In this document: in pieces, positions 4,035 to 54,251 of the stretch | Layout: each line of letters begins with the position of its first letter | Numbering within the stretch: position 1 is the first letter of the stretch | DNA from: an uncultured Pseudomonadales bacterium | GTDB taxonomy: Bacteria; Patescibacteriota; Microgenomatia; UBA1400; MFAQ01 | Length of the DNA stretch: 64,000 nucleotides | Direction: 5' to 3' | NCBI GenBank assembly: GCA_964429015.1 | Contig: CAYSAM010000003.1 | Span: 6,378 to 70,377 of the forward strand | The notes under the pieces: generated by a model | What the model saw: only the letters and a program-made list of their open reading frames with translations | Database searches by the model: none | Told to the model about the DNA's origin: nothing | Translations under genes and position numbers: made by a program

Positions 4035-4484
4035 ATGAACACAATACTCACCAATCTTCAAAAAGTCACCAAAACAGGTAAAAAACGCCTAGGACGAGGA
4101 CGTGGTTCAGGTGTTGGTGGTCATACTGTTGGTCGTGGTCAAAAAGGTCAAAAGACTCGAGGAGTTATCCCCCTCTGGTTCGAAGGTGGACAGCTTCCTT
4201 TGGTCCGCAGAACTCCTTTTATCAAAGGTAAACACCGCTTCCAGGTAATTAACAACCAACCCACCACCGTCAACTTTGATCTTCTCAGTAAACACTTCGA
4301 GGATAAATCTGTGGTCGATAATCTCACTCTCGCCAAAGCCCTAAAGATCAGTGAAAAGGTCGCCAAAAACGGTTTTAAGGTCATTGCTACTGGCAAGCTC
4401 ACCAAGGCTCTAGAGGTCAAAGTAGCAGCTTCAGTAGGTGCCATCAAAGCCATCGAAGTTGCAGGCGGCTCCCACTCAATCTAA
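4035..4484 (+). CDS. rplO: 50S ribosomal protein L15
   Basis: 149 aa ...RLGRGRGSGVGGHTVGRGQKGQKTRG... Confidence 0.93.
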   Translation: MNTILTNLQKVTKTGKKRLGRGRGSGVGGHTVGRGQKGQKTRGVIPLWFEGGQLPLVRRTPFIKGKHRFQVINNQPTTVNFDLLSKHFEDKSVVDNLTLAKALKISEKVAKNGFKVIATGKLTKALEVKVAASVGAIKAIEVAGGSHSI

Positions 4485-4503
4485 GAATTCTTTATTAAGT
4501 CCC

Positions 4504-4536
4504 AAAAAAGTCGCCGAAATGGCGGCTTTTTTTGTT
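4504..4536 (+). terminator. rho-independent terminator after rplO
   Basis: AAAAAAGTCGCC-GAAAT-GGCGGC followed by TTTTTTTGTTTTT. This is unexpected, since secY normally continues the operon. Confidence 0.7.
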
Positions 4537-4545
4537 TTTCTGGTT

Positions 4546-4622
4546 GTCATTCCCGACTCGATCGGGAATCCATCCCCATTTCGTCATTGCGAGGCTCGAC
4601 TTTAGGTCGACCGTGGCAATCC
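4546..4622. repeat. GTCAT-hairpin composite repeat element (family 1)
   Basis: GTC-ATTCCCGA-CTCGA-TCGGGAAT-CC (8-bp stem) followed by CGTCATTGCGAGGCTCGACTTTAGGTCGACCGTGGCAATCC. Related copies lie at 12100, 13056(rc), 27408, 32313, 34517, 43257 and 53706. Confidence 0.75.
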
Positions 4623-4644
4623 ACCTACCATCCTGAACCTTGCC

Positions 4645-4675
4645 CAAACACCCTATATTATGGTACAATTACCAT
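4645..4675 (+). promoter_or_regulatory. putative sigma70-like promoter (TTGCCC-18-TACAAT with TG extension)
   Basis: ttgcccaaacaccctatattatggtacaat; lies upstream of the 4713 TTG ORF. Confidence 0.35.
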
Positions 4676-4712
4676 CAGAAATCTTAAAATCCAAGAAAAA
4701 AAGAGGTGTAAA

Positions 4713-5345
4713 TTGACAACACAAAGCGAAAGAAGGAAAAGAACTACCCAAGCACTGCTGTTGGCCGCCCGCCAACTTTACAACGAATTAGATTTTTTTC
4801 AAAAGTACTTTACTTCCACAGTGATTTTAAACGGCTACGTTTGCTGGATGAACGACAGAAAAACAGGTTACTACAAGGTTAATGTCAACAGCGGCATTGT
4901 CCTTGAAGTTGATACCATTGAAGATACGACGGGTAAATACGTAAGGACAGAAGACCTTGTTTCGGTTTCCATGGCAATGGCAAACTTCATCAATATTTCC
5001 GGAACTATGGCAGGTTACTCGAGGCCTCTGCCTCAAATCAGCCACCAAGTACTGGATGGCATTGGTTGTCAGGTAACTACTCGTGGCGCGAACGAGACAG
5101 ATCTAACGCTTTATGCTTCTCACGATGTCTATCTAGAACTTGCCAAGTTGCATGTATTACACGAGCAAATATATTGGCCCCACAAACTCACCCATTACGC
5201 TCTAAAAGATGGCCGAACTCTGGCAATCACCATCGAGGAAAAAGAAGTTAACTTCGCAGTTTTGAGATCTCAATCCGTTCCAGTGAAAACAGGTATTCTT
5301 GAAATGCGCAACGCACTCATGGAATTTGTTCTTTACTGCAGTTAG
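4713..5345 (+). CDS. hypothetical protein (island ORF A; TTG start after SD AAGAGGTG)
   Basis: The long ORF from 4587 begins inside the repeat element. SD plus an in-frame TTG at 4713 is more plausible. No recognisable domain. Confidence 0.45.
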   Translation: MTTQSERRKRTTQALLLAARQLYNELDFFQKYFTSTVILNGYVCWMNDRKTGYYKVNVNSGIVLEVDTIEDTTGKYVRTEDLVSVSMAMANFINISGTMAGYSRPLPQISHQVLDGIGCQVTTRGANETDLTLYASHDVYLELAKLHVLHEQIYWPHKLTHYALKDGRTLAITIEEKEVNFAVLRSQSVPVKTGILEMRNALMEFVLYCS

Positions 5346-5382: not shown

Positions 5383-5444
5383 ATACCTACCATCATCCTT
5401 ACCAAAACACCCTCACGCCCGCAGGATTTTTTTGTGCCCAAATC

Positions 5445-5473
5445 TTGAATATTATCCTATATAGTGCTAAAAT
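5445..5473 (+). promoter_or_regulatory. sigma70-like promoter TTGAAT-17-TAAAAT with internal palindrome CTATATAG (paralogue A)
   Basis: ttgaat attatcctatatagtgc taaaat; an almost identical copy lies 700 bp downstream. Confidence 0.6.
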
Positions 5474-5519
5474 ACCCCAGATTTATCCAATCCACACTTT
5501 AAGTTAAAGGAGCTATCAC

Positions 5520-6099: not shown

Positions 6100-6133
6100 C
6101 CCCGTCGCCATCATGGCCACGGGGAATTTTTTT
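6100..6133 (+). terminator. rho-independent terminator
   Basis: CCCCGTCGCC-ATCAT-GGCCACGGGG followed by AATTTTTTT. Confidence 0.7.
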
Positions 6134-6144
6134 ATGCCCAAAGA

Positions 6145-6173
6145 ATGAAAATAATCCTATATAGTGCTAAAAT
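6145..6173 (+). promoter_or_regulatory. paralogous promoter copy B (ATGAAA-17-TAAAAT, same ATCCTATATAGTGCTAAAATACCCCA core)
   Basis: Bases 6151-6179 are identical to 5451-5479. Confidence 0.55.
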
Positions 6174-6204
6174 ACCCCAAAATTCCTTAATAAAAGGAGG
6201 CTAT

Positions 6205-7236: not shown

Positions 7237-7884
7237 ATGCTAAACGATTCTTTACGTCTCATGCTTGTTGAATCCACAATAAACGTCTTTAGGGTAGCTT
7301 TAAGTTCACCGTACTTCCTAAAGTCAATTGTGGATATCCCACACATAAACATAGGAAGCAACCTTTGTTTTTATGCAGAGGAGATAGGTGTTTATTGCTG
7401 CATCGACCTTAGTTTAAACGATATATATGTCTCACCAGAGCTAGTTGCTTTGGATTATCAAAATTACCCACAGGCTACCATCCAAGAACTTATTGTTTTG
7501 TCTCAAACACTTGTTCGCTTTGCAAAAAAAACAAGCTTGTGGTCAAGAATTTGTTCTTTATCTTGTCATATCAAAATTACTCCGGGAGAACAAGAACTTC
7601 TGCCACAAAGTTGTTATTTCGATAATGAAATTCTATTTTGGTATAGCCCCAAAATTAACCAGTACCTTAGAGTCGATTTTGTTTCATATAGCTTATTCCT
7701 TATGGATGAGCCTTCAGATCAGAGGAGTGCTTGGAAAGTCCCCTCAGAACAACATTTGCAAGCAGTTATCGAAGAGATTGTAAGTCACTATATATCAATT
7801 CATAAAAAAACAACAATGATTGCTGAGTATATGAATCAATACTTACAAAACAAAGATCTTAGTCAAAAGTTTTCCCTAAGTTAA
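7237..7884 (+). CDS. hypothetical protein (island ORF E, 215 aa)
   Basis: SD AGGAAGG; ORF. Confidence 0.55.
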   Translation: MLNDSLRLMLVESTINVFRVALSSPYFLKSIVDIPHINIGSNLCFYAEEIGVYCCIDLSLNDIYVSPELVALDYQNYPQATIQELIVLSQTLVRFAKKTSLWSRICSLSCHIKITPGEQELLPQSCYFDNEILFWYSPKINQYLRVDFVSYSLFLMDEPSDQRSAWKVPSEQHLQAVIEEIVSHYISIHKKTTMIAEYMNQYLQNKDLSQKFSLS

Positions 7885-12544: not shown

Positions 12545-12964
12545 TTAATCCCTCTCGGCTTCGCCGCTTCTCCCTTTGACAAGGGAGAGCAAAACACTTT
12601 TAACTTTTCCAAAATCTTTCAATACAGTCTCGTTTGTAAATCTGATAGTTTCAATTCCAATTTGTTTCAAAAATTCATCACGCTCCTTGTCGTAACCTAC
12701 TCTATCTTTGTGATACTCTCCATCAATTTCAATAGCCAAGTTTAATTCAGAACAATAAAAATCCAAAATAAATCTTCCAATCGGTTTCTGTCTGGTAAAT
12801 TTATATCCTGTCTGTTTTTTAGATAGTATCTTCTCCCAAACTAACACTTCTGCTTTTGTTGGTTTCTTTCTGTTAATTCTTGCTGCCCAGGTTAACTTTG
12901 GTAAATACTTTATTTGCCCATGTGTTTTGCTAATAACTTCAAAATCAATAGCTTTTTTCGTCAC
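12545..12964 (-). CDS. DUF559 / endonuclease-like (Vsr-fold) domain protein
   Basis: ...KKPTKAEVLVWEKILSKKQTGYKFTRQKPIGRFILDFYCSELNLAIEIDGEYH... Confidence 0.75.
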   Translation of the reverse strand: MTKKAIDFEVISKTHGQIKYLPKLTWAARINRKKPTKAEVLVWEKILSKKQTGYKFTRQKPIGRFILDFYCSELNLAIEIDGEYHKDRVGYDKERDEFLKQIGIETIRFTNETVLKDFGKVKSVLLSLVKGRSGEAERD

Positions 12965-12973
12965 AAATAATTG

Positions 12974-13122
12974 TAACGCCCTGCCCTGTCAAGGGAAGGG
13001 TTGGGGAAGGGTTTAAAAAGTGAGGGGGATTAAAAACATTAAGGCTTTATTCTGGATTCCGGATCAAGTCCGGAATGACAACTAACGCCCTGCCCTGTCA
13101 AGGGAAGGGTTGGGGAAGGGTT
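12974..13122. repeat. 40-bp perfect direct repeat (x2) flanking a family-1 GTCAT hairpin
   Basis: TAACGCCCTGCCCTGTCAAGGGAAGGGTTGGGGAAGGGTT occurs at 12974-13013 and 13083-13122. A related CCCTTTGACAAGGGAGAG lies at 12567-12590. Confidence 0.85.
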
Positions 13123-13140
13123 TTGGTATAAAATAAATCC

Positions 13141-16329: not shown

Positions 16330-16363
16330 ACTAACAACCTATAACTAAAAACCAAGAATAAAT

Positions 16364-16987
16364 ATGGCAAAATATACCGACCCCAAATGCAGACTATGTA
16401 GAAGAGAAGGCACTAAGCTTTATCTCAAAGGTGCTCGCTGTCTTTCCCCCAAATGTCCCATCGACAAAAAAGGCGCTCAAGTTCCAGGTCAACACGGCAA
16501 AAAAAGAGCTCGTGGTCGATTATCTGGATTTGGTTTACAGCTAAGAGAAAAGCAAAAAGCCAAGAGAACTTACTCTGTTTTGGAATCACAGTTCCATGGT
16601 TACTACGATCAAGCTATCAAGTCCCAAGGAAACACTTCTGAAGTTCTCATGCAACTTTTAGAATCTCGCTTAGACAACATTTGTTACCGTCTTGGTTTTG
16701 TCACTTCCCGTTCTTTGGCTCGCCAACTTGTTACTCATGGCAATATTTTAGTTAACGGTAAAAAAGTCGATGTTCCTTCTTTCCAAACCAAACCAGGTAT
16801 GACTATTTCTCTTCCCGAAAAAGCCGCCAAGTTCGATTTTGTCGCACCAAATCTAAACGACAAAAACGTTCCTGCCAAATGGCTCTCTCGTAAAGGCACC
16901 GAAGGCAAAATCGACCGTATGCCTACCTCAGACGAAATTGGCTCCGAAATCAAAGCCAACCTCATTATTGAGTACTACTCTAGATAA
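16364..16987 (+). CDS. rpsD: 30S ribosomal protein S4
   Basis: MAKYTDPKCRLCRREGTKLYLKGARC... Confidence 0.94.
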   Translation: MAKYTDPKCRLCRREGTKLYLKGARCLSPKCPIDKKGAQVPGQHGKKRARGRLSGFGLQLREKQKAKRTYSVLESQFHGYYDQAIKSQGNTSEVLMQLLESRLDNICYRLGFVTSRSLARQLVTHGNILVNGKKVDVPSFQTKPGMTISLPEKAAKFDFVAPNLNDKNVPAKWLSRKGTEGKIDRMPTSDEIGSEIKANLIIEYYSR

Positions 16988-28123: not shown

Positions 28124-29182
28124 ATGGCCAAAAAATCAAAAAATGAAGAAGCAAAAGGTGTCCAAACTCACGTCGACAATAGCGCTCGTCTTACCGCAGT
28201 AAAAATCGCCATGCAACAAATCACCAAACAATTTGGTGAAGGCGCCATCATGCACATGGACTCCGACAAAATCAACGACAAAATCCCCGTAATCTCTACT
28301 GGCTCCATAAGTTTAGATTTAGCTCTTGGTGTTGGTGGTTTCCCCAAAGGTCGCATTATCGAAGTCTACGGTCCAGAGGCTTCAGGTAAGACCACGGTTG
28401 CTCTCCACGTTGTTGCCGAAGCTCAAAAGCTTGGAGGTATCGCTGCCTTTATCGATGCAGAGCATGCTTTAGATCCAAGCCGTGCCAAATCTATTGGTAT
28501 AAATTTAGAAGAACTCTTACTCTCCCAGCCAGACAATGGCGAACAGGCACTAGAGATTGCTGAAACTTTAATTCGTTCTGGCGGAGTCGATGTTGTTGTC
28601 ATTGACTCAGTTGCCGCCCTAGTTCCCAAAGCTGAAATCGAAGGGGAAATGGGGGATGCTGCCATGGGTATGCAAGCGCGTCTTATGAGTCAGGCACTAA
28701 GAAAAATAACCGGTGCCATTTCCAAAAGTAAATGTATTGTTATTTTTACTAATCAACTAAGAGACAAAATTGGTGTCATGTTCGGTAATCCCGAGGTCAC
28801 TACTGGTGGTAAAGCGCTAAAATTCTATGCCTCCATCCGTATCGACATGCGTAAAATTGGCAACATCCAAGAGGGAGACGAAATTATTGGTTCACGTCAT
28901 CGCGCTAAAATAGTCAAAAACAAAGTTGCTTCCCCTTTCAAATTAGCCGAGTTCGATGTTCTCAATGTTGGTGGCATTAGTAAGTTAGGAGATCTTCTAG
29001 ACACCGCCATTGCCTACGGCGTCGTCGAAAAAGCCGGCTCCTTTATTAAATACGATGGCCAAACTCTGGCGCAAGGACGCGATGCCGCCAAAGCAGTTTT
29101 GTCTGGTCAGCCAGAAACTGTTGAGAAAATCAAAGAGCAAGTAATGGAAAAGGTCAATGCCGGAGTACAACCAGAAAAATAG
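28124..29182 (+). CDS. recA: recombinase RecA
   Basis: ...[27 protein letters not shown]...FIDAEHALD... Confidence 0.96.
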
Positions 29183-29591
29183 TGATATTCGGGCGGTACT
29201 TGTAAAGTATGCCGCCAACATTCTTAGTCGACGCCCATATTTTTATGGCCAAATTAAAAAAAAGCTAGAGGTGCGTTCTCAAAAATTAGGTTTCGAAGGT
29301 GTCAATGGTGTCATCGAAGGTATCCTCAAAGACTTACAGGGTAGTGGCTATTTAGATGACTCTTATCTAGCAGAAAGCTTTGTTAGGCGTTGTCTTGGTA
29401 AAGGTCAGGGTCCAAAAATAATTAAATACAAGTTAGGTCAACTAGGGCTTAGCGTAGCTGCGATAACCAGCGCCTTATCTACTCCAGAGAACCATGACCT
29501 TCTAGAGCAAGCCAAAGCCAAAATAGCCTCAAAATACTCTTCCTCCGATCCATACATTGTCAAAGCTAAGCTTTACCAGCGTGGTTTTTAG
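29157..29591 (+). CDS. recX: RecX-like regulatory protein
   Basis: ...[33 protein letters not shown]...; overlaps the recA 3' end by 26 nt. Confidence 0.6.
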
Positions 29592-29738: not shown

Positions 29739-31325
29739 ATGTCACTTTTATCTATTTTTAAGTCTGGAATTTTCAAAAAATCAAAAGATTCTGTTGCAAA
29801 TGTTGAAACTGTAAAGTCATCTCCTGTTGTAATTAAGTCAGAGGTCGCCTCTATCGCACCAAAAACGTCTACGATCAACGATCTACAAACTACAAACTCT
29901 GTCGACACCACCGCAATCATTGCCCAAGCTACCGCTACGGCTCATGCTCAAGCCAGAGAAATTATTATTTCCGCCAAAGATGAAGCCTTCAAAGTCAAAG
30001 ATCAAGCTATAAAAGATGCTAGGTTGCAGCTCGAAGATATCGAAGTAAAAGTAAAGTCGCTAAACCAAAAACAGCAAGCTTTAGTCCAAGAAGAAAATAA
30101 TCTTAAAAAAGACAGACAGCAACTAGAGGTAACCCAAAAGCAAATCGAAGAAATAAAAGCCAAACTTCAAGACCATGCTGATCAAATGGTCAAAAAACTA
30201 GAAAAAGTTGCATCCCTAACCACCGAACAAGCCAAAAAAGAACTTCTCGCTCAAGTTGAAAAACGCTCTTCCATGGAGATTGCCAGAGCAATCAAAGAAA
30301 CAGAAGAAGTCGCCAGAGCCCAAGCCCAAGATAAGGCCAGAGAAATTCTCGTCGACTCTATGAGGTCAGGGGCTACTGATTATGTTGCAGAGTACACAAT
30401 TTCTACAGTCCCAATTCCAGACGAAGAAACCAAAGGTAGAATAATTGGTAAAGATGGTAGAAACATTAGAATCTTCGAAAAAGTTTCTGGTTGCGACGTA
30501 TCCATGGATGATTCACCAGACGAAGTAAAACTCAGTAGTTTTGATCCGGTCAGAAGAGAAATTGCCCGCCAAACCTTAATTCATTTAATTAAAGATGGTC
30601 GTATTCATCCTGCTCGTATCGAAGAATACTTCGAAAGATCAAAGAGAGATGTTGAGCAGATCATGTTTCAAGAAGGACAAAAGCTTTGTCACGCTGTTGG
30701 CGTCTACAATATGCACCGTGACATTGTTGCCATGTTAGGACGATTCAAGTTCCGCACCTCATACGGCCAAAACATGATCAGTCACACACTGGAGGAAACC
30801 AGAATCGGTATCAAAATTGCTAGTGAAATTGGCGCCAATGTCGACATTGTTCGTATGGGCTGCTTGCTTCACGATATAGGTAAAATTATCGAAGGTGAAG
30901 GTAATCACATCGAACTAGGTGTTAATTATCTTAAAAAATACAATCTTCCCCAGCCCATCATTGACTGTGTAGCTCAACACCACGAAGATGAAGAATTTAG
31001 TTCTATAGAATCAGTCTTGGTTTATATTTCTGATGCTATCTCTGGTTCTCGCCCCGGTGCTCGCCACGAAAATACCGAAGACTATGCTAAGAGAATAAAA
31101 CAACTAGAAGAAGTAGCTCGCAAACACCCAGAAGTCGAAGATGCTTACGCCATTTCCGCTGGTCGCGAAATTAGAGTCATCGTCAATCCTCACAAGGCAG
31201 GCGATGCTCAGCTAGTCATCTTGGCTCAAGCCATAAGAGACGAAATCAGAGACACTATGACCTTCCCTGGCACCGTCAAAGTAAACGTCATTCGCGAAAC
31301 CCGCGCCTCCGAAATCGCCAGTTAA
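29739..31325 (+). CDS. rny: ribonuclease Y (KH plus HD domains)
   Basis: KH: IIGKDGRNIRIFEKVSGCDV. HD: ...ISHTLEETRIGIKIASEIGANVDIVRMGCLLHDIGK. C-terminus ...VNVIRETRASEIAS, like B. subtilis ...VIRETRAVEYAK. Confidence 0.9.
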   Translation: MSLLSIFKSGIFKKSKDSVANVETVKSSPVVIKSEVASIAPKTSTINDLQTTNSVDTTAIIAQATATAHAQAREIIISAKDEAFKVKDQAIKDARLQLEDIEVKVKSLNQKQQALVQEENNLKKDRQQLEVTQKQIEEIKAKLQDHADQMVKKLEKVASLTTEQAKKELLAQVEKRSSMEIARAIKETEEVARAQAQDKAREILVDSMRSGATDYVAEYTISTVPIPDEETKGRIIGKDGRNIRIFEKVSGCDVSMDDSPDEVKLSSFDPVRREIARQTLIHLIKDGRIHPARIEEYFERSKRDVEQIMFQEGQKLCHAVGVYNMHRDIVAMLGRFKFRTSYGQNMISHTLEETRIGIKIASEIGANVDIVRMGCLLHDIGKIIEGEGNHIELGVNYLKKYNLPQPIIDCVAQHHEDEEFSSIESVLVYISDAISGSRPGARHENTEDYAKRIKQLEEVARKHPEVEDAYAISAGREIRVIVNPHKAGDAQLVILAQAIRDEIRDTMTFPGTVKVNVIRETRASEIAS

Positions 31326-31340
31326 TATTTAACTAAAAAA

Positions 31341-32279
31341 ATGACTATAATCACCGGTTGTGAAGGTCCAGATCTAGATGGTGTTGCCTGCATGATTGCC
31401 TATTCTGAGTTGTTAAATGCAAAGGGTATTCAGTCCAAGGCCAAATACTTTGGCAAACTCGATTTGGAAACCAATTTTGTCACCAAGTTCACTAATTATT
31501 TTCCGTTAGACGAAGGATCGTATCTACATGACGCCGACTATGTTCTAGTCGATACTGCAAATCCAGACATAATTGATAAAAATATACCAATCGATCGGGT
31601 AATTTCAGTTTTCGATCATCGTCAACTTGTATTTACCAATAAATTCACCAATGCAGAATTACATATCGAACTGGTTGGTTCCTGCGCCACCTTAATTACC
31701 GAAGAGTTCCAAAAGGCAAAAGTAACCCCAAGCATTAACTCGGCGACTTACCTGTATTCTGCAATTGTTTTTAGTACTATAAACTTCAAAAATACGGTCA
31801 CAACAGATAGAGATATCAAAGCAGCCGAATGGCTACTGTCTATTGCAAATACAAGCGAAAGCTTTGTTCGCGATTTATTTTCAGCAAAATCTCAAATATC
31901 TCCATCCAATCTTTATGAAATATTGTCACAGGATTTTTCCATAAAAACTCTATCAGATCACAAAATCGGTATTGCTCAAATTGAAATGGTCAACATCAAT
32001 CGTTTCTTGTCCGACCTCAAACAACCTCTTAAAGAGGCACTCTCCAAACTAAAAACAGACAACAACTTGGAATATATCTTTTTCAATGGTATTGATGTCA
32101 TTGACGGCTACAGTCTGTTCATAGTTATCGATTCGGCTTCGGCAGACATCTTCTCTTCGATACTCGGAATTTCCAGGTTCGAATACTCACATCAACATCC
32201 CTCCATCATCATGCGCAAACAAATCTGGCCAAAAGTTGAAGAACATCTAAAAACCCGCGCCTCCGAAATCGCCTCATAA
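31341..32279 (+). CDS. DHH-family phosphoesterase-like protein (degenerate, NrnA-like N-terminal domain) whose last 8 codons duplicate the rny 3' end
   Basis: MTIITGCEGPDLDGVACMIAY...LVDTANPD...VISVFDHRQ (DHH motifs); C-terminus ...KTRASEIAS identical to the rny tail. Confidence 0.55.
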   Translation: MTIITGCEGPDLDGVACMIAYSELLNAKGIQSKAKYFGKLDLETNFVTKFTNYFPLDEGSYLHDADYVLVDTANPDIIDKNIPIDRVISVFDHRQLVFTNKFTNAELHIELVGSCATLITEEFQKAKVTPSINSATYLYSAIVFSTINFKNTVTTDRDIKAAEWLLSIANTSESFVRDLFSAKSQISPSNLYEILSQDFSIKTLSDHKIGIAQIEMVNINRFLSDLKQPLKEALSKLKTDNNLEYIFFNGIDVIDGYSLFIVIDSASADIFSSILGISRFEYSHQHPSIIMRKQIWPKVEEHLKTRASEIAS

Positions 32280-32291
32280 AAATGCATTGTT

Positions 32292-32350
32292 GGGGCGAGG
32301 TTCCTCTCGCCCCCGTCATTGCGAGTCACGGCTTCAGGTCGGCCACGGTG
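32292..32350. repeat. perfect 8-bp hairpin GGGGCGAG-GTTCCT-CTCGCCCC followed by a family-1 GTCATTGCGAG element
   Basis: ggggcgaggttcctctcgcccccgtcattgcgagtcacggcttcaggtcggccacggtg. Confidence 0.7.
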
Positions 32351-32487
32351 CTTCTCAGTAGGTTTCTGCCTTTAGCCCCTGACCTAGATCCGTGGTAAAT
32401 GTCGAAATTAGTTTTTGTCGAAGACAAAATAACTTTCGACCAATCTATACAAACTACACTAAGTGAAAATAGTACTTAGTCAAAAAT

Positions 32488-34498: not shown

Positions 34499-35413
34499 AT
34501 GTCTTTATCCACTTCACGTCATTGCGAGTCACAAAGTGCCGAAGCAATCCACAAACAACCCACCCTCATCGTCTGCGGCACCACTTCCTCCGGCAAATCT
34601 GCCTACACATTCAAGTTAGCCAAAGAGTACAAAAAAGAAGTAAACATTCTCTCCGTCGATTCTCGTCAGTTTTATAAGGACATTCCCATAGTTTCAGGAC
34701 AAGACGACCTTTCAGAGTTACCATCAAACGTCACTCTTTTTGGTCAGGGTTTTTTAGAAGCAGATCAGGTTTCTAATATTAGCGATTTTCAAAAATACGC
34801 CAATCAAATTATCATCAAAACACAAAGTGAAAACAAAAAATTAATTATTGTTGGTGGCTCTGGACTTTATCTCAAAGCTATTACCGAAAACTTAGGTAAT
34901 GCCAAAGTCCCCCCAGACGCAATCTTTAGAAAGGAAGCTGAAAGTTACTCCGTATCTACTCTCCAAAATATTTTAAAAAGTTTGAACATTTCACTCTTTA
35001 ATTCATTAAATAACTCAGATATAAACAATCCTCGTCGCCTCATTCGCCATATCGAAATTTCCCAATCACCAAAAATGTCTCAAAAATCTACCATCTACCA
35101 TCTACCATCTACGACCTATTCCTGGCTCGGTCTCCGCAAATCCCCCGAAGCTCTTCTTCAATCTATCAAAGAACGCGTCGTCTTGCGTCTCAAAAATGGT
35201 GCTATAGAAGAAGTAGAGACTCTACAAAAAAAATATCCAAATCAATCTTTACCGATTTACAGCACTTTGGGTGTAAGCCAAATACAAAAATATCTTTGCC
35301 AAGAAATTACCAAAGAAGAACTAATCAAAAAATGGACAATCGATGATAATAACTATGCCAAACGCCAAATGGTCTGGTTCAAAAAACAACCTCAGATTGT
35401 TTGGTATGATTAA
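34499..35413 (+). CDS. miaA: tRNA dimethylallyltransferase
   Basis: ...TLIVCGTTSSGKSAYTFKLAKEY...ILSVDSRQFYKDIPIVSG.... The first ~18 codons are the translation of a family-1 repeat (34517-34550). Confidence 0.8.
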   Translation: MSLSTSRHCESQSAEAIHKQPTLIVCGTTSSGKSAYTFKLAKEYKKEVNILSVDSRQFYKDIPIVSGQDDLSELPSNVTLFGQGFLEADQVSNISDFQKYANQIIIKTQSENKKLIIVGGSGLYLKAITENLGNAKVPPDAIFRKEAESYSVSTLQNILKSLNISLFNSLNNSDINNPRRLIRHIEISQSPKMSQKSTIYHLPSTTYSWLGLRKSPEALLQSIKERVVLRLKNGAIEEVETLQKKYPNQSLPIYSTLGVSQIQKYLCQEITKEELIKKWTIDDNNYAKRQMVWFKKQPQIVWYD

Positions 35414-36439: not shown

Positions 36440-36442
36440 AGT

Positions 36443-36799
36443 GCTCCAGGTCATAGTAAGCCGGATTCTGTTTTTCAGAGGAATATCTGTCTAATGCTCG
36501 AGACTTTAGGGCTTACTTACTTTCGTAAGAAGAAAAAGGCATCAAACCCAGTTCGTCGATTGCAGCAGGGCGGGTTACCACTCCAAAATAATTACTTATT
36601 TCAGATCTCTGGCTAATGCCAAAGCGTTTCACCTTTAGTCGTCTCTGTGGCCCTATCGCGCTCACGATGGTTACCCATCGGAGGACCACGCACCTCTTAC
36701 GAAGAGCGTGGACACCTTGCCTTTTTGCTGTCCGGACTTTCCTCTCACGAATTCCGACTTTAGGTCGGAAGTTCGGAGCATTCCTCACCAGATCCTGGA
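36443..36799 (-). ncRNA. rnpB: RNase P RNA (bacterial type A), ~357 nt
   Basis: The minus strand contains GAGAGGAAAGTCCGGACAGC (P4 5' strand), AAAGGTGAAACG and ACAGAATCCGGCTTAC (P4 3' strand). P1 pairs GCTCCAGG (5') with CCTGGAGC (3'). The ORF-track ORFs 36513..36842(-) and the N-terminal 36616..36870 of the (+) ORF are artefacts of this RNA. Confidence 0.85.
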
Positions 36800-36870: not shown

Positions 36871-37533
36871 ATGCTCAATCTAAATCCTTTGGTTAATAGT
36901 CTTTTTCTTCACACTGCCGGCTTCCTACCCACCCTTATTGGTGCTGCCGCGCTAATGTTTGCTGGGGTTATTCTTTCCAACTGGCTAAAAAAAGCCGTCA
37001 TCAAACTAGCCATCGCCACCAAAGCTAGTAACCTTACCAAAAATCCAGCCATCCAAGATTTTCTAAACAACGCTCAAGTCACCACAAAAGTCGAGCACAT
37101 CCTTGGTGAAACTGTTCGTATCATTGTCCTTGTGTTCTTTGTTATTGCTACTTGCAACCTTTTAGGTCTCACCTCAGTTAGTCTATTGTTGGGTAGTTTG
37201 CTTTCCATAGTACCTAACCTCTTTGCCGCCTTAGTTATTCTCTTCCTTGGGGTTATTCTTGCTGGATTTTTAGAAAAGTTAGTCAAAGGCTCTCTGGGGG
37301 CAGGAGATCCATCTCTTTCTCGTTTTGCTGGCCGTGTTGTCAGTTATACAACAATGACAATCTTTATCCTCGCAGCTCTCTCACAGCTTGGTATAGCCAG
37401 CTTCTTTATCCAGGTAACCTATATCGGCTTTATCTTAGTTCTCACTTTAGCCTTAGGTTTAGGCTTGGGGTTGGGCTCAAAAGATATCTTCAAAAAAATT
37501 CTCGAAGACTGGTACAAAAAAGTCTCCAAATAG
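36871..37533 (+). CDS. small multi-TM membrane protein (conserved-TM-helix repeats, MscS-N-terminal-like), probably leaderless
   Basis: TATAAT at 36859-36864 lies only 6 nt before the ATG at 36871. The protein is hydrophobic and ends ...KKILEDWYKKVSK. Confidence 0.6.
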   Translation: MLNLNPLVNSLFLHTAGFLPTLIGAAALMFAGVILSNWLKKAVIKLAIATKASNLTKNPAIQDFLNNAQVTTKVEHILGETVRIIVLVFFVIATCNLLGLTSVSLLLGSLLSIVPNLFAALVILFLGVILAGFLEKLVKGSLGAGDPSLSRFAGRVVSYTTMTIFILAALSQLGIASFFIQVTYIGFILVLTLALGLGLGLGSKDIFKKILEDWYKKVSK

Positions 37534-37625
37534 GCACAAAACGTCCCATAGTCTTGACTTTAAGTCCTCTTGATGATACAATTCATCATTCTAATTTCCT
37601 TGTTGCTGTAGTTTAAAAAGAAAGG

Positions 37626-38045
37626 ATGGGTACAATGAGTGTCAGTAAACGCAAGCCATCTTGGATTGGCGTTTTTATCCTGCTAGTTCTCGCACTTATG
37701 TCAGGATATGGTGACTTTAAGTTGGAAAACAGGATCGCCAATCTTAGGCGAGAAGGTGTCCATACCACCGCAAATGTGGTTGGGACTTCATATTTTAAGG
37801 CCAGCCCTTTGACTTCTTGGGTTGAGTTCAAAACCGAGAGCGGCAGCACAATCAACACCTCACTCTACATCGGTCAACTCGCAGAAACCGATCCTGTTGA
37901 GGTTGTCTACGACCCGCTCGACCCCGAGCAGGTCACCTTAGGCAGCGAGGACCGTTTCCCAATAATGTCTGTCCTTGCAGTAGCTCTCATATTTCTCTGC
38001 TTTTTTGAGATATTTGCTGGACTAGAAAATTTGCCAAGCCGGTAA
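37626..38045 (+). CDS. hypothetical membrane-anchored protein (TM - ~90-aa domain - TM; DUF3592-like architecture)
   Basis: SD AAAGGATGGG; 139 aa; flanked by a duplicated host-gene 3' end. Confidence 0.5.
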   Translation: MGTMSVSKRKPSWIGVFILLVLALMSGYGDFKLENRIANLRREGVHTTANVVGTSYFKASPLTSWVEFKTESGSTINTSLYIGQLAETDPVEVVYDPLDPEQVTLGSEDRFPIMSVLAVALIFLCFFEIFAGLENLPSR

Positions 38046-38061
38046 CCAACCCGGCTTTTTT
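38038..38061 (+). terminator. rho-independent terminator
   Basis: GCCGG-TAACCAAC-CCGGC followed by TTTTTT. Confidence 0.75.
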
Positions 38062-38063
38062 GT

Positions 38064-38107
38064 CGCAAAAAATCCTCGAGGACTGGTACAAAAAAGTAAG
38101 CAAGTAA
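38064..38107 (+). repeat. diverged duplicate of the 3' end of the 36871..37533 gene (encodes KILEDWYKKVSK*)
   Basis: About 88% identical to 37492-37533 over ~40 bp, including the stop codon. Confidence 0.8.
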
Positions 38108-38110
38108 AAG

Positions 38111-38917
38111 CTAGTTCTTCATCTCAGACATAAACAACTCAAGTTTTTTGACGCCCATATCGAGTTCGGCCATATTTCCCTCCCAGACATAATAAGGAAA
38201 CTGGTATTTCCCCTTTTTAACTAGTCTGGTTTTCTCAAAAACATTTTTGTTGACCATTGGACCCTTTTCAGTCTGAATAAGTCTAGAGCTAGATCTAGTA
38301 AGTTGAAGAGTCATACTCCGAACATCAATATGTAGTTTTACAACTGGAACCATTTTTTCCGCGTTTTCAGTTTTTGGAAACAGATATATTATCCCATTTT
38401 TCAAAAAACCATTCTCAACACCATCAAAGCCAGGCAGGACCGCTTTAATGCTAGATAAAACTTCTTCAGTTATGGTTTTTTCCAGTTGCTCCTTCTTTCT
38501 TTTTGTAAACTCTATCTCAGCTCTAATTTCTTGAGATTTTTCTACAAAAAATCTACTACTCTCCAATTCAGTTATCGCTTTAAAAATCATATTGTAACCA
38601 CCACCTTCCAAGTTGGCGTTTGTATATCCTTCAGATTTTCTTTCAGGCAGTAAAAGCCCTTCCACTGTTTTGTCAAGTTCTATTGGAAGACTATATATAC
38701 CGTCGAAGCCCACCGAAAGCAAAACATGCTTTGATCCAATTCTTGTTTCTGTAACATTTATTCTTCCAGAAATTAAATTTTCCACATCTACCACCTTCTC
38801 GTAGCACTTATAAGGTGAATGTTTTTTGTCTTCTTCTTGTAGTTTATAGCCAAGTCTTGCCATCAGTTCACTTAAACTTCTAATTTGTTTTTCACTTTCT
38901 CTACTTTCTGTCGACAT
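38111..38917 (-). CDS. hypothetical protein (268 aa)
   Basis: Long ORF with no recognisable motif. Confidence 0.5.
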   Translation of the reverse strand: MSTESRESEKQIRSLSELMARLGYKLQEEDKKHSPYKCYEKVVDVENLISGRINVTETRIGSKHVLLSVGFDGIYSLPIELDKTVEGLLLPERKSEGYTNANLEGGGYNMIFKAITELESSRFFVEKSQEIRAEIEFTKRKKEQLEKTITEEVLSSIKAVLPGFDGVENGFLKNGIIYLFPKTENAEKMVPVVKLHIDVRSMTLQLTRSSSRLIQTEKGPMVNKNVFEKTRLVKKGKYQFPYYVWEGNMAELDMGVKKLELFMSEMKN

Positions 38918-38954
38918 AAGTTATTATAAACTTTATAGCTTCTCTATCCGCTCG

Positions 38955-38985
38955 CAAAAAATCCCGAACAAGTCGGGACTTTTTG
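38955..38985. terminator. bidirectional rho-independent terminator
   Basis: AAAAAA-TCCCGA-ACAAG-TCGGGA-CTTTTTG. Confidence 0.75.
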
Positions 38986-39011
38986 ACGAAAACAAATAAA
39001 ATTATTTGGCT

Positions 39012-39152
39012 CCGATTTTGAACATCTTAGTTCCACAGGCTGGGCAGACAGCTTTAACGGCTGGCTTACCATTCTTCATGGTAACTTGCTCAAATTTCTC
39101 AACCTCTTTTTTTGCTCTACATTTTACACAATAGATTTGCATTTACTTAGTT
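39012..39152 (-). CDS. small Cys4 zinc-ribbon protein (46 aa; absent from the ORF track)
   Basis: MQIYCVKCRAKKEVEKFEQVTMKNGKPAVKAVCPACGTKMFKIGAK; SD AGGGGGTG upstream; terminator downstream. Confidence 0.6.
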
Positions 39153-44631: not shown

Positions 44632-44705
44632 GGGCAGGCCCCCGTGCCTGCCCTTGTATATCCCCCATGCCTGCCCTTGTATATCCCCCATGCCTGCCCT
44701 TGAAC
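44628..44705. repeat. REP cluster downstream of RAYT: full palindrome GGGGCAGGCCCCCGTGCCTGCCC plus two tandem 23-bp half-site repeats (CCCATGCCTGCCCTTGTATATCC)
   Basis: Same family as 25749-25779. Confidence 0.8.
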
Positions 44706-44713
44706 TGCCCCCG

Positions 44714-53149: not shown

Positions 53150-53683
53150 ATGGAAACAGAAAAATGCCCCAAATGTGGCGCACCCTTAGGAGATGTTCAA
53201 GAAACAGCAACTGGACGCAAGTTGCAACGTTGTTCGGCAGGTTCTTGGAATAAAGAAACCAAAAAAAACGAAGGTTGTGACTATGTTAAGTGGTTACAAG
53301 TAGAACCCCAAACCTTAGACGAAAAATGCCCCAAATGTGGCGCACCACTAGTGCTTCAAGTAACTCGTTTTGGTAAAAAAATGAAAAAATGTAGTGCTGG
53401 CGGATGGGACAAAGAAGCCAAAAAGGCTACTGGTTGTGATTTTGTGGAGTGGGTAAATGGCACCACCGAAAAGTTAGACGAAAAATGCCCTCAATGCGGC
53501 GAGGAACTCGTTCTTTATACTACCGCTAACGGCAAAAGAATGAAAAAGTGTTCCACTTCTGGTTGGGATAGAGAAGCCAAACGTGCCACCGGTTGTCCTT
53601 ATGTTGAGTGGCTCAAGGCGGAATATAAAGCAGCTCCAGCTAACGGCGAAGAATTTTTGCCCCCCGAAGAAGACATCTTCTAA
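53150..53683 (+). CDS. protein made of three tandem topoisomerase-type C4 zinc-ribbon modules
   Basis: Three repeats of CP(K/Q)CG..L-x20-CS(A/T)(G/S)GW-x13-GC(D/P)(Y/F)VEW; the DNA repeats about every 160 bp. Confidence 0.6.
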   Translation: METEKCPKCGAPLGDVQETATGRKLQRCSAGSWNKETKKNEGCDYVKWLQVEPQTLDEKCPKCGAPLVLQVTRFGKKMKKCSAGGWDKEAKKATGCDFVEWVNGTTEKLDEKCPQCGEELVLYTTANGKRMKKCSTSGWDREAKRATGCPYVEWLKAEYKAAPANGEEFLPPEEDIF

Positions 53684-53756: not shown

Positions 53757-54251
53757 ATGAAAAAAAAGAAGCATAGTCAAATTGATAAAATTTCTACCTG
53801 GCTCACCGAGTCTATAGGTACAAATACCTCTCTAGTCGTGCACACAATCCTATTTGTAGGGATTTTTTCACTGTCTTTATTTGGATTAACTATCGACAAA
53901 ATACTGCTCATTCTTACTACGGCCGTTTCCTTGGAGGCCATCTATCTAGCCATCTTTATCCAAATGACGGTTAACAAAACCACCGAGAGCTTGGCTAGTG
54001 TAGAAGAAAACATCGACGAAATCCAAGAGGACGTAGACGACATTCAGGAAGACGTCGAAGACATCCAAGAGGACGTAGACGACATTCAGGAGGATGTAGA
54101 CCATCTAGAAACAAACATCAAAGATATTTCTGAGGACTACATCGACGACGAGGTAGAGGAGAGTGATACCGTCAAAATCCTAAGCAATATTGAGTCACAA
54201 CTTAATTTACTCAAAGAGGAAATTGCCGAACTAAAAAAGAAAGCAAGTTAG
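53757..54251 (+). CDS. DUF1003-family membrane protein with acidic heptad tandem repeat
   Basis: 2 TM followed by ...IFIQMTVNKTTE... and a coiled coil. 21-nt tandem repeats at 54021-54110 encode (IQEDVDD)x4. Confidence 0.55.
   Translation: MKKKKHSQIDKISTWLTESIGTNTSLVVHTILFVGIFSLSLFGLTIDKILLILTTAVSLEAIYLAIFIQMTVNKTTESLASVEENIDEIQEDVDDIQEDVEDIQEDVDDIQEDVDHLETNIKDISEDYIDDEVEESDTVKILSNIESQLNLLKEEIAELKKKAS

Follow-up and report, generated by a model that had tools for sequence, protein, structure and literature searches.

A foreign-type gene end downstream of a channel-like gene as a probable microhomology recombination scar in a Collierbacteria-like bacterium

Results

The end of a channel-like gene recurs downstream of its neighbour

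We analysed a stretch of 64,000 nt from contig CAYSAM010000003.1 (hereafter the window; G+C content, 39%), which derives from an uncultured, Collierbacteria-like bacterium of the candidate phyla radiation (CPR). Our subject is a locus at which the last codons of a mechanosensitive-channel-like gene are found a second time, about half a kilobase beyond the gene's own stop codon. From left to right, the locus comprises the channel-like gene, a gene encoding a 139-aa membrane protein with a weak resemblance to DUF3592 (hereafter the DUF3592-like gene), the second gene end, a gene for a 268-aa protein (p268) on the opposite strand and a small DUF5679 gene (Table 1). The channel-like protein has 295 homologues, the nearest of which come from Collierbacteria-like CPR bacteria. 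The open reading frame (ORF) track extends its gene to position 36616, giving a product of 305 aa, because of the RNase P RNA encoded there; since the listed ORF overlaps that RNA, we place the real start at 36871.

The final 12 codons and the stop codon of the channel gene (37495–37533) recur at 38069–38107. At the nucleotide level, the direct repeat spans 40 nt (37493–37532 versus 38067–38106) at a spacing of 574, with 34 of 40 positions identical. This amounts to 85%, slightly under the ~88% given in the initial annotation, which had correctly recognized a repeated gene end. Read by codon back from their stops, both copies encode KILEDWYKKVSK followed by a stop, and KILEDWYKKVSK is the natural, conserved C-terminus of the channel protein family. 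The similarity stops within an A-run at codon −13, which specifies K in one copy and Q in the other. Both copies, and nearly all alleles, share an identical 17-nt block, GACTGGTACAAAAAAGT.

The downstream copy, which reads ATCCTCGAG...GTAAGCAAGTAA, lacks a start codon and is out of frame with the DUF3592-like gene, which ends with a stop codon at 38043–38045. It is therefore not a gene, nor is it listed in the ORF track; it probably has no function. The terminator that had been placed directly upstream of it is indeed present (Table 1).

Two trivial explanations, both named at the outset as possible refutations, do not hold. In the following 3 kb, the best match of the 39-nt gene tail reaches 32/39; the 300 dinucleotide shuffles that we made gave 21 on average and 25 at most, which rules out a chance match of low-complexity sequence. 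The copies are also not parts of one longer ancestral gene, as all homologues end in KILEDWYKKV.K-like tails of the same length.

The two copies differ by seven bases in six codons, and all seven differences are synonymous (ATT/ATC, GAA/GAG, GTC/GTA, TCC/AGC, AAA/AAG and TAG/TAA). They include a switch between the two codon families of serine (TCC/AGC). When sets of seven substitutions were drawn at random, none of 200,000 left both peptide and stop intact. Because every difference is synonymous, the copies are two alleles and not a fresh target duplication: they diverged while each was the end of a working gene, and did not arise by duplication on the spot.

Table 1 Coordinates of features at the channel and rny loci (window positions)
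Feature	Position	Strand	Remarks
Resident rny 3′ end	31297–31325	+	Encodes ...TRASEIAS and stop; serine codon AGT
DHH/DHHA2 (family II pyrophosphatase-like) gene	31341–32279	+	Last 7–8 codons are the rny relic; product ends ...EEHLKT followed by RASEIAS and stop
rny 3′ end relic, fused in frame to the DHH gene	32251–32279	+	Matches the resident copy exactly over 23 nt, then reads TCA TAA
Bacterial class A RNase P RNA	36441–36799	−	90 bits, under the Rfam gathering score of 100 and hence not reported by the default search
Channel-like gene	36871–37533	+	220 aa; mechanosensitive-channel transmembrane (TM)-helix family, PF05552, E = 6e-13; bounds the variable slot on the left and is conserved
Channel gene 3′ end, resident and functional (upstream copy of the repeat)	37493–37533	+	37493–37521 backbone-like; last four codons GTC TCC AAA TAG, type A haplotype
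Type A spacer with promoter of the DUF3592-like gene	37534–37625	+	TTGACT-17-TGATACAAT at 37554–37582 (promoter scan); homologous spacer in L025, L024, L006 and L004
DUF3592-like gene (139-aa TM-domain-TM gene), type A resident gene	37626–38045	+	Weak DUF3592 match, PF12158, E = 7.5e-4, under the Pfam cut-off
Hairpin terminator of the DUF3592-like gene	38036–38057		Also flagged as a minus-strand terminator; conserved in L025 and L024
Left junction, copy 1 of the 13-nt direct repeat TCGCAAAAAATCC	38063–38075	+	Contains the microhomology AAAAAATCC
Relic of foreign (type B) channel gene 3′ end	38067–38107	+	Untranslated
p268, 268-aa gene of unknown function	38111–38917	−	Probable incoming gene; converges on the channel gene in type B loci
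Copy 2 of TCGCAAAAAATCC	38952–38964	+	Where the DUF5679 terminator begins; closes the 889-bp block on the right
Hairpin of the DUF5679 gene terminator	38962–38978		Sequence variant as in L017 and L007
DUF5679 gene	39002–39142	−	46 aa; Pfam label; conserved right border of the slot

Two arrangements of the slot in relatives

We compared the locus with its counterparts in relatives, numbered within the range L001–L031. A scan of a genome collection gave four of them, and most of the useful ones were contigs from metagenomes or read archives. The channel gene and the DUF5679 gene bound a hypervariable slot, the spacer measuring 77 to 2653 bp (about 80 bp in distant relatives). Beyond the slot, leftward from the channel gene and rightward from the DUF5679 terminator, all relatives are colinear with the window, and 20 relative loci contain the DUF5679 gene at 86–100% amino acid identity. 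Three contigs with identical channel proteins illustrate the variability: the channel gene is followed by p268 in L028, by a NUDIX gene in L029, and by a contig break at the stop codon in L027. In L001/L030, whose channel gene is 94% identical to that of the window at the nucleotide level, the slot contains no gene.

In the arrangement that we term type A (L025 and L024), the channel gene is followed by a promoter, the DUF3592-like gene and its terminator, then by GTCGCAAAAAATCC continuing as CGCAC, and directly by the DUF5679 terminator and gene. Orthologues of the DUF3592-like gene occupy the same position in both at 82–85% identity, and the more distant type A loci L004 and L006 carry a forward gene for a small membrane protein. 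Type A channel genes end in GT. TC. AA. and TAG or TAA. At the site that corresponds to the junction in the window, L025 reads ...GCCAAGCCGGTAACCAGCCCGGCTTTTTTGTCGCAAAAAATCC followed by CGCACAAGTCGGGA and runs into the DUF5679 gene; L024 does likewise.

In type B (L028 and L017), the channel gene reads ...AAAAAAATCC followed by TCGAGG...TAA, and the end of a convergent p268 gene comes after only 3–5 nt. The consensus ending is ...TTCAAAAAAATCC followed by TCGAGGA.TGGTACAAAAAAGT.AGCAA.TAA. L028 has ...TTCAAAAAAATCC, then TCGAGGATTGGTACAAAAAAGTCAGCAAGTAA, AAA and the end of its p268 homologue, and L017 is equivalent. Alleles that lack the arrangement of the window, which the initial annotation had proposed to seek by comparison, thus exist, and the slot of the window holds the contents of types A and B in tandem.

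The downstream copy belongs with type B. It differs from the channel gene ends of L028 and L017 at two and three of 39 positions, respectively, compared with seven of 39 for the window's own gene, and together with the adjacent p268 end it is 89% identical to L028 over 161 nt. The conserved serine is encoded by TCN in five of five type A loci, and by AGY in the copy and in every sampled non-type-A locus. As the serine codon family tracks the haplotype, the last codons of the channel gene travel with whatever lies downstream. The copy is thus not a duplicate of the host gene's own end, as had been supposed, but a relic of a foreign allele; target-site duplication and local tandem duplication are ruled out by the same two facts, that all differences are synonymous and that the relic matches the allele of another lineage.

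A further premise, that the 139-aa gene was the insert, is probably wrong, as L024 and L025 have the gene without the relic. In L024, L025 and L004, the DUF3592-like gene, together with its promoter and terminator, ordinarily accompanies the channel gene, and no second channel end was found downstream in these or in any other locus searched. The newcomer is more likely the p268 gene on the other side of the relic, with the DUF3592-like gene as the resident.

The stop codon of p268 lies 3 nt (AAG) from that of the relic. About three homologues of p268 are known, with amino acid identities of 55% (L017), 87% over the 39 aa present (L028) and 41% (L026), and p268 has no match in Pfam, NCBIfam or PADLOC. 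It is absent from L001, a relative of the backbone. The closest relative, L031, is 98.5% identical over the channel gene at the nucleotide level and diverges only from the C of GTC TCC onward; its sequence after the channel stop differs from that of the window. Exact-protein lookups placed the channel, DUF3592-like and p268 proteins of the window in one contig only.

Type A and type B meet at nine shared nucleotides

At the junction, the window reads ...GGCTTTTTTGTCGCAAAAAATCC followed by TCGAGGACTGG..., that is, type A up to AAAAAATCC and type B after it. In a longer stretch, ...CCCGGCTTTTTTGTCGCAAAAAATCC leads to TCGAGGACTGGTACAAAAAAGTAAGCAAGTAA, AAG and p268 in the window, and to CGCACAAGTCGGGA... 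in L025. AAAAAATCC is an A-rich sequence of 9 nt, which lies after the terminator in type A and within the channel gene, 40 nt before the stop, in type B. It is the only sequence that type A (L025, L024) and type B (L028) have in common at the join.

A second copy of TCGCAAAAAATCC, the 13-nt sequence around this microhomology, is located 889 bp downstream at the DUF5679 terminator. Its 11-mer core, GCAAAAAATCC, occurs at only these two places in the 64 kb, both strands counted. Deletion in silico of the 889-bp block that the TCGCAAAAAATCC copies flank (38076–38964) yielded a type A locus colinear with L025 and L024. The deleted version aligned to them at 84% and 83% identity, respectively, over ~730 columns and with no gap at the join.

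Features of mobile elements are absent. We found no inverted repeat pairs in 37400–39100, no integrase, transposase or recombinase domain among the window ORFs scanned and no feature resembling a cassette recombination site at the locus, and the DNA between the two gene ends contains solely the gene for the 139-aa membrane protein.

A second repeated gene end at rny

When the whole window was scanned at the protein level for repeated gene ends, only the channel case, a case at rny and one spurious hit, caused by a 41-nt intergenic repeat, emerged. The rny gene, encoding RNase Y, lies at 29739–31325, and the DHH/DHHA2 gene that follows it ends in a second set of its last codons (Table 1). This RA.EIA tail occurs in none of the 150 best representatives of the DHH family. 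In L013 and L022, the DHH gene after rny ends instead in HLQKTPK and a stop. The rny gene itself ends in AGT TAA in L013 and L030, where the DHH gene comes next, and in L014, which has another downstream gene; the endings TCA TAA and TCG TAG are those of the DHH-less haplotypes L007, L009, L004 and L006.

These comparisons suggest that the resident DHH gene was fused at its end, through a short microhomology (~AAACC), to a foreign-type gene end. The DHH gene would have lost its own tail to the foreign-type rny end, in the same layout as at the channel locus, with a minus-strand gene (glyoxalase) next. The junction was reconstructed from the native DHH tail of L013 alone, and the donor-type haplotype, in which rny converges on the glyoxalase gene, was not found among the relatives. 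In L030, the DHH tail reads ADRAFEIAS with the stop TAG and differs from that of the window by mostly silent changes; the two tails could be one old fusion under selection or the result of repeated capture.

Two further observations concern this region. In L030, a close relative, the DHH gene after rny (4240–5200) is split by frameshifts, either as a pseudogene or through errors at 1.7x coverage. Also variable is the stretch from the rny relic to the glyoxalase gene: in the window it is a 208-bp spacer with a palindromic repeat element (32280–32487), and in L030 (5195–5803) it contains a 179-aa minus-strand gene.

Other repeats and variable sites

The window contains several other repeats. The motif CGTCATTGCGAG, followed by a hairpin and GCAATC, occurs five times on the plus strand (4582, 12099, 27464, 32314 and 34517) versus 0.08 expected. 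It is also present in relatives (L001, 5910–5950; L006, ~7655–7700; L019 and L021, after rny). The sites are intergenic or variable spacers, among them the spacer immediately behind the rny relic and the slot without a gene in L001, and the motif looks like a family of small palindromic repeat elements. The copy at 34517 falls within the annotated start of a miaA-like ORF, which probably begins further downstream.

An exact 41-nt direct repeat (12974–13014 and 13083–13123, 109 bp apart) lies immediately upstream of adk. It adjoins a gene for a DUF559 (Vsr-like endonuclease) protein (12545–12964, minus strand) and a gene for an unknown 127-aa protein, both of which sit between secY and adk in the ribosomal-protein operon; this region may be another insertion scar. 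A promoter-like direct repeat of 59 nt (5426–5484 and 6126–6184, 700 bp apart, 86% identity) brackets a 187-aa ORF without a Pfam match and may be a duplicated promoter or mark another gene insertion.

Three tandem 23-nt units (CCCCCATGCCTGCCCTTGTATAT) at 44639–44712 occupy the spacer that precedes a CCA-adding enzyme/poly(A) polymerase-like gene. Repeats within coding sequence comprise in-frame 21-nt tandem repeats in a coiled-coil-like ORF (54006–54110) and triplicated zinc-ribbon modules (53159–53515) in the ORF at 53150–53683. In L030, a Y1 (IS200/IS605-type) transposase is encoded at 16331–16669, ~5.4 kb beyond the channel gene; the equivalent region of the window contains no such gene.

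Discussion

The second channel-gene end is very probably the scar of a recombination event at a microhomology, whichever way the DNA moved. We regard it as an ordinary, one-off scar and not as the work of a special gene-insertion system. In the event that we propose, type A and type B DNA would have been joined by an illegitimate crossover at the 9 nt of AAAAAATCC, while the other crossover would have been ordinary homologous recombination in the shared flank.

For the direction of transfer, our confidence is only somewhat better than even that a type B fragment imported p268 into a type A locus. Such a fragment, with its right anchor in the DUF5679 region, would have carried p268 and the last 40 nt of the donor's channel gene. 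Because p268 abuts the channel gene in type B, a piece of that gene must accompany it, and the piece would stay short because a longer stretch would recombine homologously and replace the slot without leaving a scar. The sequence around the relic is consistent with this direction. The resident copy's ATTCTCGAA is of the backbone type, and the left flank up to 37521 matches L031 and L001; the relic's ATCCTCGAG does not. From the relic through the DUF5679 terminator, the window resembles L028 and L017.

The same locus could have arisen in the opposite direction, which we consider a serious but less probable alternative. Type A DNA, with its left anchor in the channel gene, would then have inserted the DUF3592-like gene into a type B genome, its far end joining at AAAAAATCC in the recipient's channel gene and thereby duplicating the last 40 nt. 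Formally, this would be an 'insertion with long target duplication'. The product would be structurally identical, and L028 and L017, the empty type B loci, each have one channel end with which both copies align. An illegitimate join is, moreover, expected near the end of a homologous anchor (PMC3240628, PMC5361080), and insertions flanked by 30–400-bp duplications without mobility genes are known, mostly from competent species (PMC2853133). However, the starts of the resident copy and the relic would both derive from the recipient and should match, whereas they differ (ATT CTC GAA versus ATC CTC GAG), and only the resident start equals that of the L031 and L001 backbone. Both flanks are likewise L001/L031-like, with the relic, p268 and the terminator being L028/L017-like. 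On these grounds the balance tips modestly towards entry of p268 and the relic into a type A locus.

Several points weigh against the import of p268 at a microhomology as we describe it. The direction turns on few bases, and the similarity of the flanks gives only a modest preference. The actual donor and recipient are absent from the sampled relatives. p268 is only 67% identical to the L017 copy at the nucleotide level, and L028 covers only its last 39 codons. As AAAAAATCC is A-rich, the microhomology could be partly coincidental. The junction is seen in a single metagenome-derived contig, so that a chimeric read or an amplification artefact retains a small probability. Finally, competence is demonstrated for Saccharibacteria only, and DNA uptake in Collierbacteria-like organisms would be plausible by analogy.

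An artefact would require that co-existing type A and type B strains were stitched into one contig during assembly or amplification. The slot is polymorphic among close strains and contigs do break there, as in L027, which together with the single contig lends this explanation some substance. We nevertheless consider it very unlikely: the left junction shares 9–13 nt, far less than the k-mer or overlap lengths of assemblers, and the window and L030, which are independent assemblies, both contain the analogous relic of rny.

Less probable still, by a narrow step, is a dedicated and recurrent mechanism, site-specific or of the long-target-duplication kind, that inserts cassettes at the 3′ ends of conserved genes and supplies a replacement C-terminus. 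The initial annotation had favoured such a mechanism on the strength of the recurrence at rny, and two cases of the same layout in 64 kb do speak for it. In addition, the 17-nt block GACTGGTACAAAAAAGT could serve as a core site, and the different codon set of the rny-derived DHH tail in L030 could mean independent captures. Yet the junction is a 9-nt A-rich microhomology, neither a recombinase (among the ORFs scanned) nor an inverted repeat or a structure resembling a cassette site was found, type A loci of four other genomes carry this kind of gene without a repeat, and a relic was found in no other locus searched for one. Two sampled parental arrangements that share only 9 nt explain the junction base for base. 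The same pattern at rny means that a process does recur, but we see no sign of a mechanism for preserving the host C-terminus. Generic one-sided homologous recombination where variable slots border on conserved sequence accounts best for the recurrence.

Phage 21 and e14 in the icd gene of Escherichia coli and islands in tRNA genes integrate into the 3′ end of a gene and carry a replacement for it, so that a functional end and a silently differing, displaced end flank the insert; such elements encode an integrase and span many kilobases. By contrast, the 574 bp between the copies described here hold a single gene, for a small membrane protein, and no recombinase. Integration by an integrase at the 3′ end of a gene was rejected for want of a recombinase among the ORFs scanned and because L024, L025 and L004 carry the homologous gene without a repeat. 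An integron cassette or integrative element fails likewise (no recombinase or transposase in those ORFs, no inverted repeats, the homologous gene elsewhere without repeats), as does a transposon or miniature inverted-repeat element (no inverted repeats, no transposase, a 40-nt repeat that has diverged at silent sites only).

Insertion with long target duplication is known for restriction-modification genes in Helicobacter, Haemophilus and others, mostly competent species, and the repeat sometimes overlaps the 3′ end of a gene (PMC2853133). The channel locus resembles these cases in its repeat of >30 bp (40 nt), in the existence of empty-site genomes (L028 and L017) and in the lack of mobility genes. 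It differs in that the copies there are near-identical, whereas here they are different alleles, each side with a sampled parental haplotype. In Rhs, contact-dependent inhibition (CDI) and type VI secretion system (T6SS) effector arrays, C-terminal displacement leaves a displaced or hitch-hiking 3′ gene end downstream, as a relic of successive recombination events at the border between constant and variable regions (PMC5361080), much as we observe. Unlike in those arrays, both ends at our loci encode the same peptide, and the conserved genes encode a channel-like protein and RNase Y. Our loci also show no toxin or immunity logic, and searches of Pfam, NCBIfam and PADLOC gave no toxin or defence match for the channel-like, DUF3592-like or 268-aa proteins.

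The closest parallel is homology-facilitated illegitimate recombination, in which one crossover takes place in extended homology and the other at a microhomology of a few bases. It has been observed in natural transformation of Streptococcus pneumoniae, Acinetobacter baylyi and Pseudomonas stutzeri (summarized in PMC3240628), and the same mechanism has been proposed for the orphaned 3′ ends in T6SS and Rhs arrays (PMC5361080). The channel locus shows its elements, namely a junction in extended homology, a junction at a few-base microhomology and DNA from a different lineage. In both settings, foreign DNA is trapped beside a conserved anchor gene and mobile-element functions are not needed. The overall pattern matches the signature of this process, or of an equivalent microhomology join. 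The experimental systems differ from our case, which is read from sequence in an uncultured CPR lineage and in which the direction is uncertain. With respect to the route, natural competence has been demonstrated in Saccharibacteria, another CPR group (PMC10633639), and uptake of DNA may have preceded the event here. RecA and RecX are encoded in the window at 28124–29591, just upstream of rny, and RecA may have taken part.

We therefore view the channel locus as a well-resolved new example of an event of known kind. A false lead is removed, in that no new cassette-insertion system operates here. In its place, since both parental arrangements were sampled, the locus documents base for base a microhomology-mediated gain of a gene by an uncultured CPR bacterium of the Collierbacteria-like group. 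The comparison also yields a reusable test, as silent-site differences, and TCN/AGY serine switches in particular, mark a relic as foreign rather than as a target duplication. That short, silently diverged relics of conserved gene ends are a regular by-product of gene gain in the reduced genomes of CPR bacteria, through one-sided recombination of taken-up DNA at slot borders, is a tentative idea to which we give rather low odds. Existing relics may possibly even be reused as new landing sites, as the different rny-derived DHH tail of L030 hints. If the idea is true, genome-wide mining of such relics could provide a dated record of donors, and of natural transformation, for lineages that are uncultured. 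For the organism at hand, the locus provides indirect evidence that one-sided homologous recombination, probably after uptake of DNA, reshapes the variable slots of these small genomes.

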